Part shown: positions 34,116 through 42,206 of the stretch, piece by piece | How the letters are laid out: each line of letters opens with the position of its first letter | How positions within the stretch are numbered: the first letter of the stretch is position 1 | Origin: a virus | Virus record (IMG/VR): IMGVR_UViG_3300035092_000015 | Coordinates: 1 to 64,000 of that record | DNA length: 64,000 nt | Reading direction: 5' to 3' (one strand) | The notes under the pieces: model-generated | Databases searched by the model: none | What the model saw: the letters and a program-made list of their open reading frames with translations, nothing else | Told to the model about the DNA's origin: nothing | Program-made: the position numbers and the translations under genes

Positions 34116-34342
34116 TCCAGGAGCTTAGCGCCGTCGAACGGACCGCGCTGCACATCGTGGTCGAAGGCGCCAAAACCGCCGTCGAGATGTTCCAGGAACA
34201 ACCAGCCAAAACCGCCGACGGGACCTTGGTCGACGACACCACCTGCCGTCAGATCGCGCTGCTCGCCGCGAACCTCACCCACGCCATCGCCTGCTACCCC
34301 CACGTCCTGCTCGAACTCGCCGCCCAGGAGGAACCGACATGA
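34112..34342 (+). CDS. Hypothetical protein
   Basis: Coupled, contains the AGGAGG RBS for purZ. Confidence 0.5.
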   Translation: MIQELSAVERTALHIVVEGAKTAVEMFQEQPAKTADGTLVDDTTCRQIALLAANLTHAIACYPHVLLELAAQEEPT

Positions 34343-35388
34343 CCCGAGGCACCATCCAAGTCATCGCAGGCGGACAGTACGGATCCGAAGCGAAAGGCGC
34401 CGTCGCCGGCTACCTGGCCGCCGAACAGGAACAGATGCTCGCGATCCGGGTCGCTGGCCCCAACGCCGGACATTCGGTGGTCGACCCGATCACCGGCGAG
34501 AAGTACGCCCTGCGGCAGATCCCCGCCGCCGCTGTTACCAACCCCGGCGCGTCGCTGTGCATCGCCGCCGGATCCGAGATCGACCCGTACGTGCTGCACG
34601 AAGAGATCGCCTGGCTCGAACGCGGCGGGATCCACGTCAAGGACCGGTTGTTGATCGACCCGGCCGCGACCTGGCTCACCCAGGACCACAAAGACCGCGA
34701 AATCACCGCCGGGATCGTCGGGCGGATCGGGTCCACCGGGAAAGGGATCGGCGCTGCCCGCGCCGCCCGGATCATGCGCGAAGCCCGCACCGTCGGACAG
34801 CACCGGTCCGAGTTCGAACAGTACGGACACATCGGGTCCGTTGCTACCGCCGCCCGGTCCGTACTGCGCGGCGGGGCCACGGTCCAGATCGAAGGGACAC
34901 AAGGGTACGGGTTGGGGCTGCACGGGGAACACTACCCGCAATGCACCTCCTCGGATTGCACCGCGTTGGATTTCCTGCAGATGGCCCGGGTCAACCCGTG
35001 GGAAGCCGACCAGCTGCAGGTGTGGCTGGTGTTCCGGCCCTACCCGATCCGGGTCGCCGGCAACTCCGGATATCTGTACGGCGAGACCAGCTGGGAGGCA
35101 CTCGGGCTGGCACCGGAGATGACCACCGTCACCAAGAATATCCGCCGGGTCGGGCAGTGGGACGGCGGGCTGGCGTACGCCGCGATGCAAGCCAACGGTG
35201 GGTCGCGTGTCGTGTGGCCGGTGCTGACCATGGCCGACCAGATCGACCCTGCCCTGGCCGGGGTGACCGACTCTGACACGGTGCTCGGGTCGGATCTGCT
35301 CGGGCAGTTCCTGAAGATCTTCGAAGCCGACGTCGGGCTCGAACCGTGCATGATCACCACCTCCGACCGCACCTGCGTGAGGCTGTGA
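34339..35388 (+). CDS. purZ: PurA paralogue, PurZ0-type 2-amino-deoxyadenylosuccinate synthetase
   Basis: GGQYGSEAKG (Ser replaces the PurA catalytic Asp of GDEGKG), GPNAGH, GSTGKGIG, EGTQG, YPQCTS, PIRVAGNSG, TTVTK..RRV, and LTMAD (GTP-type TxxD). Confidence 0.85.
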   Translation: MTRGTIQVIAGGQYGSEAKGAVAGYLAAEQEQMLAIRVAGPNAGHSVVDPITGEKYALRQIPAAAVTNPGASLCIAAGSEIDPYVLHEEIAWLERGGIHVKDRLLIDPAATWLTQDHKDREITAGIVGRIGSTGKGIGAARAARIMREARTVGQHRSEFEQYGHIGSVATAARSVLRGGATVQIEGTQGYGLGLHGEHYPQCTSSDCTALDFLQMARVNPWEADQLQVWLVFRPYPIRVAGNSGYLYGETSWEALGLAPEMTTVTKNIRRVGQWDGGLAYAAMQANGGSRVVWPVLTMADQIDPALAGVTDSDTVLGSDLLGQFLKIFEADVGLEPCMITTSDRTCVRL

Positions 35389-35963
35389 TGGCCAAGAAGA
35401 AGCTCCCCCTGCAGGTCGCCTGCTCGACTTGCCACCGGCAGTACAAACCCCGACCCAACAACACCCTGCCCCGCCACAAAGACGGACTGCGGTGGTGCCC
35501 CGGCAGCTACCAGCCGCCCGCCGCACCCGACGACAACGCCACACCCGGCGGCAGTGGGTTTGCTTGGCTGCCCACCCCCGAACCGATCCTGATCGAAGTG
35601 CCCCGAGTCGGGGCGAAAGCACAACCACTGGCCGATTGGTGGGCCGCCCGCGCCCTGGCCGAGATCGAGATGGTCGTGGCGAAAGCCGTCGAATACGGCG
35701 CCACCGACCTGCGCGACCTGGGCTACCAGATGCTGGACATGGCCGGGCGGCGCGAGCAGTTCATGGACCCGGAGGACCTGCACTACAGCGACGCCTACGC
35801 CACCGAGGTCGGGATCGTCTTCTACGCCCAAGGGAAACTCGCCCGCGCCGTGGCCGCGATCAAAGAAGGCCGACGGCCCTCAGTCGATACCTGGCTGGAC
35901 CTCGGGGTGTACGCCCGGATGGCCCAACGGGTCCACGACCGAGGCGGCTGGCCCGGTGTCTAG
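35388..35963 (+). CDS. Zn-ribbon plus Nmad1/DUF1599-like (MazG-fold) nucleotide pyrophosphohydrolase candidate
   Basis: K..EYG..DL ... KLAR ... DTWLDLGVY pattern, TGATG-coupled to purZ. Confidence 0.6.
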   Translation: MAKKKLPLQVACSTCHRQYKPRPNNTLPRHKDGLRWCPGSYQPPAAPDDNATPGGSGFAWLPTPEPILIEVPRVGAKAQPLADWWAARALAEIEMVVAKAVEYGATDLRDLGYQMLDMAGRREQFMDPEDLHYSDAYATEVGIVFYAQGKLARAVAAIKEGRRPSVDTWLDLGVYARMAQRVHDRGGWPGV

Positions 35964-36041
35964 CCGGCACTGGTTCGACCCGATCCCCGCCTGCATCTAC
36001 TGGGTGTGGTTCATCCTGACTTACTGCACTGGCAGCTGACC

Positions 36042-36287
36042 ATGCCCACCCGGATATCCACCGCAGACGAACACTACTGGGAGCAGCAAGCCCGACACCT
36101 GGTCGCCTGCGACACCTGCCCCGCCCCGATCGACCAACCATGCCACTACCCGACCAGCGGAGTCGAAGCGTCAGTGTGCTGCCACACCAGCCGGATGGTC
36201 AAAGCCGTCAACCACCCCGACTGGGCCGGAAGGAAACCCAAATGGCTACCGACGAAACAATGCGCGACTGGCTCGCCCCCCAGATGA
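36042..36287 (+). CDS. Small Zn-finger protein
   Basis: CDTCPA...PC...CHTSR. Confidence 0.5.
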   Translation: MPTRISTADEHYWEQQARHLVACDTCPAPIDQPCHYPTSGVEASVCCHTSRMVKAVNHPDWAGRKPKWLPTKQCATGSPPR

Positions 36288-36532
36288 GACGCGCCGACTG
36301 CCCCGAACCCGACTGCAACATGTGGGCCGGACATCAAGGGCTACACTCCATCGCCCCCCGGGCTAGGCACACCATCCCCGGCTGGGCAGTGACCCTGTTC
36401 GCACTCACCGCCGGGCTGGCCATGCTAGCCGCCGCCGCCCGGATCCATCTGGAAACCGCCCTGCTCGCCGGCTGCGGGACGCTGCTGGTCGGCACCGCCA
36501 TCGCCGCGATCAACGAGATGAGGAGACACTGA
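36242..36532 (+). CDS. Small membrane protein
   Basis: GAAGGA RBS, two TM segments. Confidence 0.5.
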   Translation: MATDETMRDWLAPQMRRADCPEPDCNMWAGHQGLHSIAPRARHTIPGWAVTLFALTAGLAMLAAAARIHLETALLAGCGTLLVGTAIAAINEMRRH

Positions 36533-37485
36533 TGGGCACACCCTGGGGCGACCAACCCCCACTCGTCTACTTCGCCGAACCGATCGACAAAGCCCACGGG
36601 CAGAACTTCGCCATCGCCGCCACCATGCACGGCGCACTCACCACCTGGGGCTGCACCACCTACCGCCCCAGCGCAGCCTGGAAAGCCACCCACCTGGACT
36701 GGCGGGTCGACCACCTCAACCGGCAAGCGCTACGCCTGGCCGACCTGATCGTCGCCTACCTCGACGAACACACCCCATCGATCGGAGTCCCCGCCGAGAT
36801 CGAAGCCGCCACCGCCCAGAAAATCCCCGCCATCGTGCACTACACCGGCACCTCGTTCGTCCTGGCCGGCAACCCCCTGGTCACCGTCATCACCAAAACC
36901 GAAGACCTGGTCGCAGCGGTGATGCGAGCATTGAAAGACCACCCCCGGCCCGACCGGGCCGCCGACCACCAACTGGCCCGGACCCTCGCATCGGGTGGTT
37001 CGGTCAGCCTCGGCACCATCACCCCCGCACAGGCCACCGCCCTGGTCGCCAAGATCAACGGCCCCGAACCGATCCGGCTGGTCGTCACCGAAGGCGCCGC
37101 CCCACCCCAGCGGGTCTACCAAGACGACGCCGGAATCGACCTCACCACCGCCGCCGAGATCGTCATCAACCCCGGACAGTACGTCGACGTCCCCACCCAG
37201 GTCGAAGCCACCCAACTCCCCTCCGGATACTGGGGGTTGATCACCGGCCGCTCGAGTGCGCTGCGGAAATGGCGCCTGCACATCCCCATCGCCGTGATCG
37301 ACCCCGGCTGGCGCGGCCCGCTGTTCGTCGGGGTGTGGAACCTCGGCGGGAACCCCGTCACCGTCAAAGCCGGCGACCGGCTCGGCCAGCTGATCCTCAT
37401 CCCCAACCACACCGCCCCGATCGAAGTCGTCGCGGCGGTTGAAGACCACCCCCGGGGTTTGAAAGGATTCGGCTCGAGCGGATGA
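36532..37485 (+). CDS. Fusion of nucleoside 2-deoxyribosyltransferase/N-glycosidase-like domain and trimeric dUTPase-like domain
   Basis: N-term VYFAEPID...ADLIVA...SIGVPAEIEAA. C-term DAGIDL, GRSS, VIDPGWRG, GDRLGQ, RGLKGFGSSG. Confidence 0.8.
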   Translation: MGTPWGDQPPLVYFAEPIDKAHGQNFAIAATMHGALTTWGCTTYRPSAAWKATHLDWRVDHLNRQALRLADLIVAYLDEHTPSIGVPAEIEAATAQKIPAIVHYTGTSFVLAGNPLVTVITKTEDLVAAVMRALKDHPRPDRAADHQLARTLASGGSVSLGTITPAQATALVAKINGPEPIRLVVTEGAAPPQRVYQDDAGIDLTTAAEIVINPGQYVDVPTQVEATQLPSGYWGLITGRSSALRKWRLHIPIAVIDPGWRGPLFVGVWNLGGNPVTVKAGDRLGQLILIPNHTAPIEVVAAVEDHPRGLKGFGSSG

Positions 37486-37925
37486 AACCCAGCCACCAAT
37501 GCCGGGTCTGCGGACGGTGGCTCGAAGGCGAGTGGAACCGGACCACCGACCCAGACCTGCAGGCCGCCCTGCAACGGCAGATGAACCAAGGCCACTGCGA
37601 CGGGTGCACACCCGACCTCGAACGGCCCCACCAATGGCGACCCACCCGGCTCGGCGTCACCCGGATCCTGCAAACCGAACGGCTGGCCATCCACCGGATC
37701 AACTACCTGTGGTGGTGCGCCTGGTGCGGCACACAGACCAGACAACCCGACTACCCCGGCGGGACCTGCAACCAACACCGCCTGGCCGAACTGACCGGCC
37801 GGACCTACACCGTCGACACCAAACCGACCCTCCCAGGAAGGCCACCCAACCGGACATGGCACTCGACTACCAATGCGTGTACTGCCGCCCCCAACCCCAC
37901 GCACGATTCCACAACGGGACATTGA
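37482..37925 (+). CDS. Cys-rich hypothetical protein
   Basis: Multiple CxxC, ATGA coupling. Confidence 0.45.
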   Translation: MKPSHQCRVCGRWLEGEWNRTTDPDLQAALQRQMNQGHCDGCTPDLERPHQWRPTRLGVTRILQTERLAIHRINYLWWCAWCGTQTRQPDYPGGTCNQHRLAELTGRTYTVDTKPTLPGRPPNRTWHSTTNACTAAPNPTHDSTTGH

Positions 37926-38326: not shown

Positions 38327-40474
38327 GTGGAACGTACCCCGCTGCAGGTCGTGCTCGACGCCATCACCACCCGCACCGGGACCGGGCAGCTGCAGAACGG
38401 GCAATGGCGACTGCACTGCCCCGCCCACCCAGACCGAAACTCCAGCCTCGGACTGGCCGAAACCCCAGCCGGACATGCGCTGCTGTACTGCCAAGCCGGC
38501 TGCCGCACCGAAGACGTCCTCGCATCCGTCGACCTGCAGATGCGCGACCTGTACCCCATCACCAACGGCGACCGGCGCGAAGACCCCATCGTCGCCACCT
38601 ACCCATACGTGGACGAAACCGGGCAGCTGCTGTACCAAGTGCTGCGGACCGCCAACAAACGGTTCATGCAACGCCGCCCCGACCCCACCCAACCCACCAA
38701 ATGGATCTACAAACTCGACGACACCCGCCGGGTCCTGTACCGCCTCCCAGCCGTGCTGCAAGCCATCCGCGAAGGCCAAACCATCTACCTCGTGGAAGGC
38801 GAGAAAGACGTCCACACCGTCGAACAAGACGGCTGCGTCGGGACGTGTAACCCCGGCGGAGCCGGGAAATGGCGACCCGAATACACCGACCAGCTACGCG
38901 GCGCCCACCTCGTGATCGTCGCCGACATCGACCCCACCGGGGTCGGGATGCGCCACGCCCGAACCCTACACCAACAGCTACAACCAGTAGCAGCCAGCCT
39001 GCTGCTGTGCCAACCCGCCGCCGGGAAAGACACCACCGACCACCGGCTCGCCGGGTTCGCCCTGGACGAGCTGACCATCGTCGACCCCAACCCCCCAACC
39101 CCCACCCCGCAGGCCGTCCCGCTGCCCCCGGAGGCCATCGACGGGCCGCCCGAGCCGGTATCACCCGCAACCACCGACATGGGGAGAGCGAGGATCCGGT
39201 TGACCCCCGCATCGGCGTTCACCATCAAACCCGTCCGGTGGGTCTGGGACGGACGGATGCCACTCGGCGAGATCTGCCTCATCGCCGGACGCGAAGGCGT
39301 CGGCAAATCCACCTTCCTGGCCTGGCTCACCGCCGCCATCACAAACGGTAACCTCCCCGGGGTGTACGAAGGCGAACCCCGGGCCGTCCTGTACAGCGCC
39401 TCCGAAGACGCCTGGAGTTACACCATCGCCCCCCGGATGGTCGCCGCCGGAGCCAACCTCGACCTGGTCTACCGGATCGACACACTCGACGACGACGGCA
39501 CCCCAGGGAAGCTGATCCTCCCACGCGACAGCCGATACCTGCCCGAGATCGCCGAAGAAACCAAAGCCGCCGCACTCATGTGCGACCCCATCCTCAGCCT
39601 CGTCGACGGAAGGATCAACCCCAACCAAGCCCAAGAACTGCGCTCCGCACTCGAACCGTTGAAACACGCCGCCGAAACCGCCGGGATCGTCGTCCCCGCA
39701 CTCGTGCACTTCAACAAAACCCGCGACGTGGACATCCTGTCGATGATCGCCGGGTCGAGATCGTGGTCCGAAGTCGCCCGCGCCGCCCTGGCGATCGCCG
39801 AGGACAAAGAAGCCGAAGAATACACCTGTGTCGTCTCCCAGGGCAAGAACAACCTCGGCCGTAAAAACCTCCCCAACCTGCTGTACACCATCGACGACGT
39901 AGCGTTGGAGACCGAGGACGGACCACCTGCCAGGGTCGGCCGGCTGCGGTGGACCGGCGAGACCGAACTGGAGGCGGAAGAGGTGCTGCAACGCAAACCG
40001 ACCAGCCAAGCCAACCGGGAGAACATGAACCGGACCCAGGCGGCGATCTTGGACTGGCTGGACGAACAGGGCCGCGCCTGCAGCCCCCGCGAGGTTGCCG
40101 ATGGGCTGCCGGACGTCCTGAACTATGAGAACGCGAAGAAAACCCTCGCCCGGCTGGCGTCACGCGGCGTAATCCAACGGGTAGGGACAGGCTTGTATCG
40201 CACCGAACCTGCTGTCCCTGCCGCTGGAGCCGGGTCAACGCCCATGCGTACGCGCGACCCCCTCGGAAAACAGTCCCCGTCCCCCGCCCAAGTCAAGGGG
40301 GGTGGAGGGACTGGAAGTAAGGGTATACTTGTCCCCGCAGGGACTGGAGGAGGGACTGGGACGCAGGGGGCGGGCAAGTTGTCCCCCGAGGTGGTAAGGA
40401 GTTGCACGGTCTGCTACGGACCGTTAACGATCACCGAGCCCGGCCAGACCACCCACCCCACCTGCGAGCCCTAG
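38327..40474 (+). CDS. DNA primase (Zn-binding + TOPRIM) / AAA_25 helicase fusion
   Basis: CPAHPD...YCQAGC, LVEGEKD, IVADID, Walker A GREGVGKS, C-terminal wHTH. Confidence 0.9.
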   Translation: MERTPLQVVLDAITTRTGTGQLQNGQWRLHCPAHPDRNSSLGLAETPAGHALLYCQAGCRTEDVLASVDLQMRDLYPITNGDRREDPIVATYPYVDETGQLLYQVLRTANKRFMQRRPDPTQPTKWIYKLDDTRRVLYRLPAVLQAIREGQTIYLVEGEKDVHTVEQDGCVGTCNPGGAGKWRPEYTDQLRGAHLVIVADIDPTGVGMRHARTLHQQLQPVAASLLLCQPAAGKDTTDHRLAGFALDELTIVDPNPPTPTPQAVPLPPEAIDGPPEPVSPATTDMGRARIRLTPASAFTIKPVRWVWDGRMPLGEICLIAGREGVGKSTFLAWLTAAITNGNLPGVYEGEPRAVLYSASEDAWSYTIAPRMVAAGANLDLVYRIDTLDDDGTPGKLILPRDSRYLPEIAEETKAAALMCDPILSLVDGRINPNQAQELRSALEPLKHAAETAGIVVPALVHFNKTRDVDILSMIAGSRSWSEVARAALAIAEDKEAEEYTCVVSQGKNNLGRKNLPNLLYTIDDVALETEDGPPARVGRLRWTGETELEAEEVLQRKPTSQANRENMNRTQAAILDWLDEQGRACSPREVADGLPDVLNYENAKKTLARLASRGVIQRVGTGLYRTEPAVPAAGAGSTPMRTRDPLGKQSPSPAQVKGGGGTGSKGILVPAGTGGGTGTQGAGKLSPEVVRSCTVCYGPLTITEPGQTTHPTCEP
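40184..40385. repeat. Cluster of ten GGGAC/GTCCC pentamers (iteron-like), candidate replication origin
   Basis: Copies at 40184, 40214, 40273, 40279, 40307, 40331, 40340, 40352, 40358 and 40381 in both orientations, in the low-complexity 3' tail of the primase gene. Confidence 0.5.
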
Positions 40475-40503: not shown

Positions 40504-40767
40504 ATGGCAACCCAGATCCAACCGGGACAACCCGGTGACCTGCCCGACCACCCACGCCCCATCAGCAGCACCACCTACCCCTGGGACCAATGGGCCGACG
40601 GACACACCTGGCTGCTCACCCGAGACACCGACTACACCGACACCACCCACAAAGTCACCGAAGCCGCCAAGAAACACGCCCAACGCCACGGCTACCACCT
40701 GCGCTACGCCACCACCCCCAACAGCATCCGCCTACGATTCATCCCGAAGGAACCCGCCACACCATGA
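40504..40767 (+). CDS. Hypothetical protein
   Basis: YPWDQWADG motif, ATGA coupling to purB. Confidence 0.6.
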   Translation: MATQIQPGQPGDLPDHPRPISSTTYPWDQWADGHTWLLTRDTDYTDTTHKVTEAAKKHAQRHGYHLRYATTPNSIRLRFIPKEPATP

Positions 40768-42206
40768 GCCGACGTACACCCACCCCAGACATCGACCGCA
40801 TCTGGACCACCACCTGGACCACACACCTGTGGCACCAACAATGGCTCGCCCATTTATACACCCAAACCCGAGCCAACCCCAACCACCCAGGACACGACCA
40901 CCTCGACCACTACCACCAAGCCGCCCAGCAATACGCCGACAACCCCACCCCGTGGTTGATCGAACAAGGGCACCAAGAACAGATCACCCGACACGACCTC
41001 CAAGCCGCCCTCGACATCTACAACCAGCACGCCGGACACGACACCGCCCACCTCGGACTCACCAGCCACGACATCACCGACCCCACCACCCAGATCCAGA
41101 TCCGAGACAGCGCCAACCACATCCTGCGGCAGATCACCGAACTCGCCCACCTGCTCGGACAGCAAGCCCAAACCTGGCGCCTGCAACCGCTGCTCGCCCG
41201 CACCCACGGCCAACCCGCCCAGACCACAAGCTACGGACACCGGATCGCCGCCACCATCACCCCGCTGCTGGCGGCCGGGGCCCGGCTCGAGGCCGCGATC
41301 CAGAACTACGACTTCCGCCCCCCGCACGGTGCGGTCGGCACCTCTGCTGACCTGAACCGCGTCCTGCACGGGTGGGCCGGGCACGGGAACGGCCCGACGA
41401 CGGCCTCGGAGGGGTCTCCGAGCGCCTCGGAGCCCCCAGCGGGTATTTCGGGCCCCCCAGGAGCTTCGGAGGCCGCCGGAAAGGCTTCCGAAGCCGTCGA
41501 CCTGTACGGCGTTTTGATCGCCAAAGCGGCCGGGTTCCAGTTCGTGATGCCCACCACCCGTCAGATCTACCACCGGTCCTACGACCTGCCGATCGCCTCG
41601 GCGATGGTGGAGATCGCGGCGGTCGCGCAGACCTGGGCCACCGACCGGCGGCTGGAGGCGATGCTCGGGTTGGGCAACGAGGCCCGCGACCCGGGGCAGG
41701 TCGGTTCGTCTGCGATGGCGCATAAGACCAACCCGGTCCTGTGCGAACGGATCTGCAGCCTGACGTCGGTTACTCGGAGTCACTACACCGGGTTGGCGGA
41801 GATCGCCGGGCAGGGGTGGCTCGAGGGGGATGTGTCGACCTCTGCAGCCCGGCGGTTGTTGCTGCCGCAACTGTTCTCGAATGTCTCGGCGATCTTGATC
41901 AACTGGCGCGACGCCGCCCTGCGGTGGGAGCCGGATTGTAAGCAGCTGTCCCGTGAGTTGGAGTTACACAACCAGGAGGTGTCGACGGGGGCGTTGCTGC
42001 ACTACCTGGTCGAGTCGGGGGTGCCACGGTCGGAGGCCCACCGGCGGCTGCGTGGGGGGGTGTTGGGGCTGCTGGCCGATGCGGATGGCGAGGAGCATGA
42101 TCGGTTACTGGCTGTGATGGTGGATGCGTCTCGGATCCCGGTGCAGGCGTTGGTCGAGGTCGATGTGATTGTGGCGGCGACGGCATCGCTCGGCCCGTCC
42201 AGTTGA
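40764..42206 (+). CDS. purB: Adenylosuccinate lyase (fumarase/ASL superfamily)
   Basis: TRHD, HLGLTSHDITD, ARTHGQPAQ, GAVGT, and signature GSSAMAHKTNP..CE. Confidence 0.85.
   Translation: MSRRTPTPDIDRIWTTTWTTHLWHQQWLAHLYTQTRANPNHPGHDHLDHYHQAAQQYADNPTPWLIEQGHQEQITRHDLQAALDIYNQHAGHDTAHLGLTSHDITDPTTQIQIRDSANHILRQITELAHLLGQQAQTWRLQPLLARTHGQPAQTTSYGHRIAATITPLLAAGARLEAAIQNYDFRPPHGAVGTSADLNRVLHGWAGHGNGPTTASEGSPSASEPPAGISGPPGASEAAGKASEAVDLYGVLIAKAAGFQFVMPTTRQIYHRSYDLPIASAMVEIAAVAQTWATDRRLEAMLGLGNEARDPGQVGSSAMAHKTNPVLCERICSLTSVTRSHYTGLAEIAGQGWLEGDVSTSAARRLLLPQLFSNVSAILINWRDAALRWEPDCKQLSRELELHNQEVSTGALLHYLVESGVPRSEAHRRLRGGVLGLLADADGEEHDRLLAVMVDASRIPVQALVEVDVIVAATASLGPSS

Follow-up and report, generated by a model that had tools for sequence, protein, structure and literature searches.

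Gene content of the locus

The window analysed here is a stretch of 64,000 bases (bases 1-64000) of the 80,875-bp viral record IMGVR_UViG_3300035092_000015, a genome with direct terminal repeats that is rated 100% complete and has a G+C content of about 67%. Between positions 34339 and 37485 its plus strand holds five open reading frames (ORFs), namely a purZ gene, a gene for a 191-amino-acid (aa) protein that we call gene X, two small ORFs of 93 and 130 aa, and a 317-aa fusion of a domain related to nucleoside 2'-deoxyribosyltransferases (NDT) with a trimeric dUTPase (Table 1); a primase/helicase gene and then a gene for a PurB-like lyase lie downstream of the fusion. We read this stretch as the nucleotide-pool part of a Z-DNA module of the PurZ0 type, composed of purZ0, X, the two small ORFs and a dmtZ-dutZ fusion, and its carrier is probably a phage in whose DNA adenine is replaced by 2-aminoadenine (Z).

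Table 1. Features of the purZ0 locus, in positions of the window.
Feature	Position	Strand	Evidence
purZ0-type 2-aminoadenylosuccinate synthetase gene, 349 aa	34339..35388	+	NF038379 (PurZ), 316.9 bits
Gene X, 191 aa	35388..35963	+	ATG overlaps purZ stop
Zinc ribbon of X, residues ~9-40 (CxxC...H...C)	35412-35507	+	AlphaFold model
Conserved four-helix domain of X, residues ~79-189	35622-35954	+	AlphaFold model
93-aa zinc-finger ORF between X and the fusion	36006..36287	+	PF24623 (Phage_zn_bind_8), 1.5e-5, 25.1 bits (cut-off 24)
130-aa ORF, hydrophobic C-terminus	36140..36532	+	ORF call; no family match
DmtZ-like domain (NDT/DNPH1 fold), residues 1 to ~140 of the fusion	36532..36951	+	Structure model, Foldseek, alignment
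Inter-domain linker, residues ~141-185, length varies among relatives	36952..37086	+	12-sequence alignment; pLDDT falls after residue 140
DutZ-like trimeric dUTPase domain, residues ~186-317	37087..37485	+	PF00692

The purZ gene and the search for known dATP-removal enzymes

The purZ product scores above the cut-off of the NCBI model for PurZ (NF038379, 300 bits). Its P-loop reads GSEAKG, with a serine (S16) in place of the aspartate of PurA; this serine is invariant in 17 aligned homologues, and the whole motif is common to the window protein and those of phages Wayne, Ghobes, Keanu and TurboVicky, the corresponding motif being GSTGKG in PurZ of the phiVC8 type and GDEGKG in a PurA-like outgroup. 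Identity to the PurZ0 proteins of actinophages, Wayne and Ghobes included, is 43-48%, and to the PurZ proteins of Vibrio and Acinetobacter phages 29-36%. Maximum-likelihood analysis of 16 sequences united the four of the PurZ type in a clade (100/100 support) that excludes the window protein, which groups with the PurZ0 references at 85/94 support. By model score, serine, identity and tree, the comparison of sequences places the window purZ in the PurZ0 type.

Profile searches with hidden Markov models (HMMs) over the whole 80,875-bp genome returned no match to the HD (PF01966), YfbR-like (PF12917) or HD_3 (PF13023) families, so that the absence of a recognisable HD-domain dATPase, claimed for the window in an earlier note on this DNA, extends to the complete genome. 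The same search gave no match to DUF550/MazZ (PF04447), DUF5664 (PF18909) or MazG (PF03819), and none to DNA polymerases of family A (PF00476) or B (PF00136) or to the alpha subunit of polymerase III (PF07733); the sole replication-type gene seen beside these missing polymerases is the one for a 715-aa primase/helicase (38327-40474). The locus is thereby comparable in its presumed outcome with the DatZ/MazZ system of phages S-2L, phiVC8 and Acinetobacter SH-Ab 15497, in that it would remove dATP and supply dGMP for the synthetase, but it would do so with enzymes unrelated to the HD dATPase and the DUF550 or MazG protein of that system, none of which was detected in this genome.

The fusion protein resembles DmtZ-DutZ of phage Wayne

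Removal of dATP in PurZ0 phages was assayed by Poubanne et al. (Nucleic Acids Research, February 2026; PMC12884076), from whose main text the following is taken. The 307-aa NDT-Dut protein of Wayne (gp53, DmtZ-DutZ) converted dATP to dAMP and then mainly to adenine, and its C-terminal half (DutZ) cleaved dATP, dGTP and dUTP to the monophosphates, dGMP among them; the fusion prefers dUTP, with an apparent kcat of 16.4 per s compared with 5.9 per s for dATP (Table 1 of that paper). In the Gordonia phage Ghobes these two activities reside in separate proteins, and the assayed DmtZ homologues were specific for dAMP. All 98 PurZ0 genomes of that set had dutZ and 85 had dmtZ, fused to dutZ in 77 of the 85.

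The window fusion (gene 36532-37485, plus strand, 317 aa) aligns with Wayne gp53 over its full length (residues 12-317 on 5-305, E 1e-34), with the same domain order of NDT, linker and dUTPase, the same Tyr, Asp, Pro, Asn and Glu of DmtZ and the five dUTPase motifs. As in Wayne, a purZ of the PurZ0 type precedes it by a few genes, and the genome has neither DatZ nor MazZ. It differs by its 32% identity, by a longer linker and by a tryptophan in motif III, which is tyrosine in Wayne, and the genomes differ in that X takes the position held in Wayne by DUF5664-1 and that no family A polymerase was found here; both Wayne and Ghobes carry the polymerase DpoZ-1, of family A in Wayne. With the separate Ghobes proteins DmtZ (gp53) and DutZ (gp55) the fusion shares its catalytic residues, and Ghobes likewise has an X homologue (gp51) after purZ0; unlike Ghobes, the window has the two domains in one gene, and Phe109 instead of the lid Trp124. 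At least 80% of the fusion is covered by 110 phage records.

The C-terminal half is a dUTPase by its profile match (PF00692, residues 192-317, 81.7 bits, E 5e-23, cut-off 22), the single match to this family in the genome, and all five motifs can be read: DAGIDL, GRSS, IDPGWRG, RLGQL and RGLKGFGSSG. Its identity is 41-50% to dUTPases from PurZ0 phages of Microbacterium, Arthrobacter and Gordonia (E 1e-22 to 1e-30; 44.7% for Wayne, 45% for Ghobes DutZ) and at most 36% to those of other phages (E 1e-11 to 1e-14), so that by pairwise identity it is nearer to the former.

The aromatic residue of motif III stacks on the deoxyribose in trimeric dUTPases. The earlier note had pointed to the reading AVIDPGW, with tryptophan for the usual tyrosine, and had suggested that the domain may hydrolyse dATP or dGTP. 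The motif is there as described (AVIDPGWRG), but the tryptophan was rejected as a specificity switch because the DutZ proteins of Wayne and Ghobes, which act on dATP and dGTP, both have tyrosine at this place (IDAGYRG). Among 62 viral loci with a DutZ homologue (sampled as described below) the residue was Trp in 6 and Tyr in 55, the motif being unrecognised in one, and among 41 fused homologues from a protein search it was Trp in 26, Tyr in 13 and Phe in 2; in these sequences tryptophan is a common variant.

The N-terminal half is identified chiefly by its predicted fold. The structure model of residues 1-155 reached a predicted local distance difference test (pLDDT) score of 88.7 and a predicted template modelling (pTM) score of 0.83, and its top Foldseek matches in the PDB were nucleoside 2'-deoxyribosyltransferase, DNPH1 and MilB (E 1.4e-6 to 4e-5, TM about 0.6, probability 1.00), the same solved neighbours that are given for the Wayne protein (PMC12884076). 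Its Tyr13, Asp19, Pro46, Asn63 and Glu89, the last within SIGVPAE, align with Tyr6, Asp12, Pro57, Asn77 and Glu103 of Ghobes DmtZ and are invariant in all 12 aligned sequences. In the Ghobes enzyme Tyr6, Asn77 and Glu103 form the catalytic triad, which like Asp12 and Pro57 was probed by mutagenesis or modelling, and Asp12 is proposed to read the 6-amino group of adenine (PMC12884076). The earlier description of this gene as an NDT/DNPH1-dUTPase fusion thus stands, with nucleophile motif, modelled fold and dUTPase match in place, and we regard it as very likely, by homology, that the protein is a DmtZ-DutZ with the activities of the Wayne enzyme.

Gene X belongs to a large family linked to purZ0

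The stop codon of purZ (TGA, 35386-35388) and the start of X share one A (TGATG), with GAGG just upstream, in agreement with the coupling of purZ to the next gene already remarked in the earlier note. In the AlphaFold model of X, built on 40 relatives (mean pLDDT 86.3), a small zinc ribbon of beta structure is joined by a disordered linker to four helices (residues 79-103, 106-118, 131-159 and 166-185). The protein matched no model of Pfam, PHROG or NCBIfam, and the 91 relatives returned by a word-based search were all unnamed or "hypothetical", with the exception of one evident misnomer. A profile of the helical domain gathered 946 clusters (50% identity) at E<=0.001, of which 915 remained at E<=1e-10. 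Many members consist of this domain alone (106-137 aa, without zinc ribbon), and others bear one or more zinc fingers at the N-terminus. Across 125 members eleven positions never vary (W85, K99, E102, Y103, G112, G149, K150, R153, D171, Y175 and G186), and E92, E140, D167, R181 and a C-terminal GGWPG are nearly invariant; judging by their spacing, the conserved residues would form one stripe per helix and line a polar and charged cleft.

A Pfam scan of these 125 members at E<=10 gave no recurrent family, the best being DUF1127 in two of them. Comparison with predicted structures gave weak hints: in the ESM Atlas X matched, with TM scores of 0.70 and 0.59, two clusters in which 66% and 100% of the members bear DUF1599, and in BFVD seven true family members were followed by rows named "Nucleotide modification associated domain 1" (the best at E 0.11) and DUF6378, at E 0.1-1.5. 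The resemblance to Nmad1 (DUF1599, PF07659) and to DUF6378 phage proteins is thus a weak lead at the level of modelled folds and, with no HMM match, does not make X a member of either.

The linkage of X to purZ was followed in two samples of IMG/VR viral loci, one of 64 loci found through X and the other of the 80 best-ranking among 554 loci that were retrieved with PurZ. In the first, 60 of the 64 loci have a PurZ homologue directly upstream of X on the same strand, and in three more there is no room for one, X starting 14 to 409 nt from the beginning of the locus. A DutZ homologue lies downstream of X in all but two loci (62 of 64), and these two break off shortly behind X. Overlaps of 4 to 13 nt between the purZ stop and the first start codon in the X frame are frequent in these viral loci. 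In the remaining locus (L058) the sole PurZ hit is downstream of X on the opposite strand, which may reflect a rearranged module or a permuted contig. A sizeable group of similar loci (L022-L049, L054-L062 and L069) has purZ0, an X consisting of the domain alone (113-137 aa) and a DutZ that stands by itself and reads IDCGYTG at motif III; DmtZ was not detectable in this group by tblastn, and it would be a minimal three-gene module.

In the second sample the slot after purZ held X in 76 of the best 80 loci and DUF5664 in the other four, with no locus having both or neither. Among GenBank phages X occurs in 31 records (18 of Microbacterium, 6 of Gordonia, 5 of Streptomyces and one each of Micrococcus and Curtobacterium phages), annotated as hypothetical in all of them, and in none of Arthrobacter phages. 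In the four records opened, those of TurboVicky (gp54), Ghobes (gp51), Keanu (gp66) and the window, it directly follows purZ. In Arthrobacter PurZ0 phages a DUF5664 protein (PF18909, dGTP_diPhyd_N) takes this slot, as does gp50 of MeganNoll (5.5e-31) and, in Wayne, DUF5664-1, an assayed pyrophosphohydrolase of dATP, dGTP and dUTP (PMC12884076).

One protein (P0307, 491 aa) of the ten long X family members scanned joins an adenylosuccinate-synthetase domain to an X domain, and this might be a frameshift artefact. A prediction of the PurZ-X complex, run with custom alignments and without controls, scored 0.00 (mark 0.32), which speaks neither for nor against binding.

Small ORFs and neighbouring genes

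Of the two small ORFs between X and the fusion, the 93-aa one is 87% conserved in the close relative L006 and was not found elsewhere among the modules, and the 130-aa one, 71% conserved, was found in L006 only. The start assigned to the latter is uncertain in view of the overlap with the 93-aa ORF; at the other end its stop codon runs into the ATG of the fusion (TGATG), with AGGAGA upstream, and the two are coupled in translation. A further ORF for a cysteine-rich protein of 147 aa (37482-37925, plus strand) has a start that overlaps the stop codon of the fusion and is 90% conserved in L006; apart from weak hits to zinc-binding families (HypA, E 0.0036) it matched no family. The PurB-like adenylosuccinate lyase gene (40590-42206, plus strand) matches TIGR00928 at 1.7e-61, below the cut-off of that model, and its product has a long N-terminus rich in His, Pro and Thr. 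Such a gene is also present in Streptomyces phage Keanu (gp74), and of the 64 viral loci 24 have PurB-like hits no more than 8 kb from purZ.

Discussion

Taken as a whole, the combination of a PurZ0-type module, a DmtZ-DutZ fusion and an X protein serving the same pathway is, in our judgement, the probable explanation of this locus. The DutZ domain would cut dATP, dGTP and dUTP to their monophosphates, and the dGMP so formed would feed PurZ0. The DmtZ domain would split dAMP into adenine and deoxyribose 5-phosphate, with possible transfer of the latter to free Z base, and the joint outcome of both steps would be an irreversible emptying of the dATP pool. X, coupled to purZ0 in translation, might act as a second dNTP pyrophosphohydrolase. 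Because no match to a family A, B or C DNA polymerase was obtained in the genome, control of the pool may be the phage's only means of excluding adenine.

The part assigned to the fusion is the firmest. A two-step exclusion of adenine, from dATP through dAMP, had been proposed in the earlier note and is supported here by homology to the assayed Wayne fusion; as a mechanism it is not new, given the publication of that enzyme in February 2026 (PMC12884076). The note's further suggestion, that an Nmad1-like protein may supply dGMP, concerns X, which no Nmad1 HMM matches, and in the published system dGMP is already a product of DutZ itself. The alternative, that the fusion is a housekeeping dUTPase joined to a DNPH1-like hydrolase of some other nucleotide, such as dUMP or a modified deoxynucleoside monophosphate, with no role in adenine exclusion, agrees with its being the sole dUTPase of the genome, with the preference of the Wayne enzyme for dUTP and with the action of the closest folds, DNPH1 and MilB, on other bases. 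We find it very improbable, given that Asp19, the equivalent of the proposed adenine reader of Ghobes DmtZ, is invariant, that the assayed homologues are dAMP-specific (PMC12884076) and that in the sampled loci the gene always lies within purZ0 modules.

For X, our tentative assignment, which we rate somewhat below even, is that of a functional stand-in for DUF5664-1, that is, a further dNTP pyrophosphohydrolase. It is based on the shared slot, the mutual exclusion over the 80 sampled loci, the coupling to purZ0 and the conserved charged helix face. Both proteins are small and helical, but in the absence of any detectable sequence relation X is not a member of the DUF5664 family, and the equivalence would be one of function.

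The main rival for X makes it a non-enzymatic protein that works with PurZ0, as a scaffold or as a subunit for regulation or specificity, and is produced in step with the synthetase through the overlapping stop and start. The strict adjacency to purZ and that overlap are what such a partner would display, no catalytic family can be assigned to X, and P0307 offers one natural PurZ-X fusion. Against a mere partner speak the fusion to PurZ in only one of ten long members, the occupation of the same slot, in the other lineage, by the stand-alone assayed enzyme DUF5664-1 (PMC12884076), and the nature of the conserved charged residues (E92, K99, E102, E140, K150, R153, D167, D171 and R181), more like those of a ligand site than of an interface, and we consider this explanation rather unlikely. 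Small phage proteins encoded beside metabolic genes often inhibit host enzymes, and X could accordingly act on the host, by blocking an enzyme that degrades dGTP or dZTP or resupplies dATP, or by binding DNA through its zinc ribbon. The variable N-terminal zinc ribbon or run of zinc fingers would suit this role, but the many members of 106-137 aa that lack it leave the helical domain as the conserved part, and residues conserved across phages of different host genera fit a small-molecule site better, so that a host target seems improbable to us.

Several observations weigh against the reading that we prefer for the locus. On the side of the fusion, identity to the assayed enzymes is modest (that to Wayne given above, and 26% over 105 residues, E 3e-5, to Ghobes DmtZ), and its NDT domain (residues 13-105) scores 17.7 bits (E 0.004) with PF05014 (Nuc_deoxyrib_tr), short of the gathering cut-off of 28.8 bits; this family model is too narrow for the DmtZ clade, because the assayed Ghobes DmtZ also falls below it at 18.3 bits. 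The lid residue Trp124 of Ghobes is replaced by Phe109, but the lid tryptophan does not define the wider DmtZ family, because the column varies across the 12 sequences (F, W, W, F, Q, Q, Y, V, A, V, V, V). On the side of X, many contigs are common to both locus samples, and the one found through PurZ is biased to sequences near the purZ of the window. Homology of X to DUF5664 was rejected as undetectable: PF18909 gave no match, and hhalign against two successive DUF5664 alignments, the first of 11 and the second of 15 proteins from named phage records and viral loci, returned probabilities of 0.04-0.2%, with a higher value for the reversed control. Neither the MazG HMM (PF03819) nor that of Nmad1/DUF1599 (PF07659) supports a known family, the former not matching X and the latter having no match in the genome at E<=10 and no recurrent match in the 125 members, and a Foldseek search of the X model against the PDB found nothing at E<=0.001, only generic helical matches. 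From the earlier description of X as MazG-fold-like or Nmad1-like there remain, then, a confident four-helix domain and weak Nmad1 and DUF6378 neighbours, and its membership of MazG, DUF1599 or DUF5664 finds no HMM match. Finally, a second hydrolase is not obviously needed, because the DutZ of Ghobes, a phage that also has X (gp51), could hydrolyse dATP and dGTP unaided in vitro (PMC12884076).

No description of gene X was found in the literature searched, which included PMC12884076 and the preprint 10.1101/2025.10.22.683976, and the gene-presence tables and gene maps (Fig. 1A) of the former may depict or name it; the association study of the preprint was blind to X because it was built on Pfam domains. 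That X represents a new and widespread family, an obligate third member of the PurZ0 pathway wherever DUF5664-1 is lacking, either as a structurally novel dNTP pyrophosphohydrolase or as a subunit of PurZ0, is in our estimation a nearly even proposition. Synthetic biology is looking for a minimal set of genes with which a cell could make Z-DNA, and those described to date for the PurZ0 route are PurZ0, DutZ, DmtZ and DUF5664-1. X is the more useful lead from this locus and a cheap, well-defined target, with Ghobes gp51 available in a cultured phage. If the proposal is true, either a pyrophosphohydrolase arose in X independently of MazZ, DUF550, DUF5664 and DutZ, or X is needed for the synthesis of the Z nucleotide itself.

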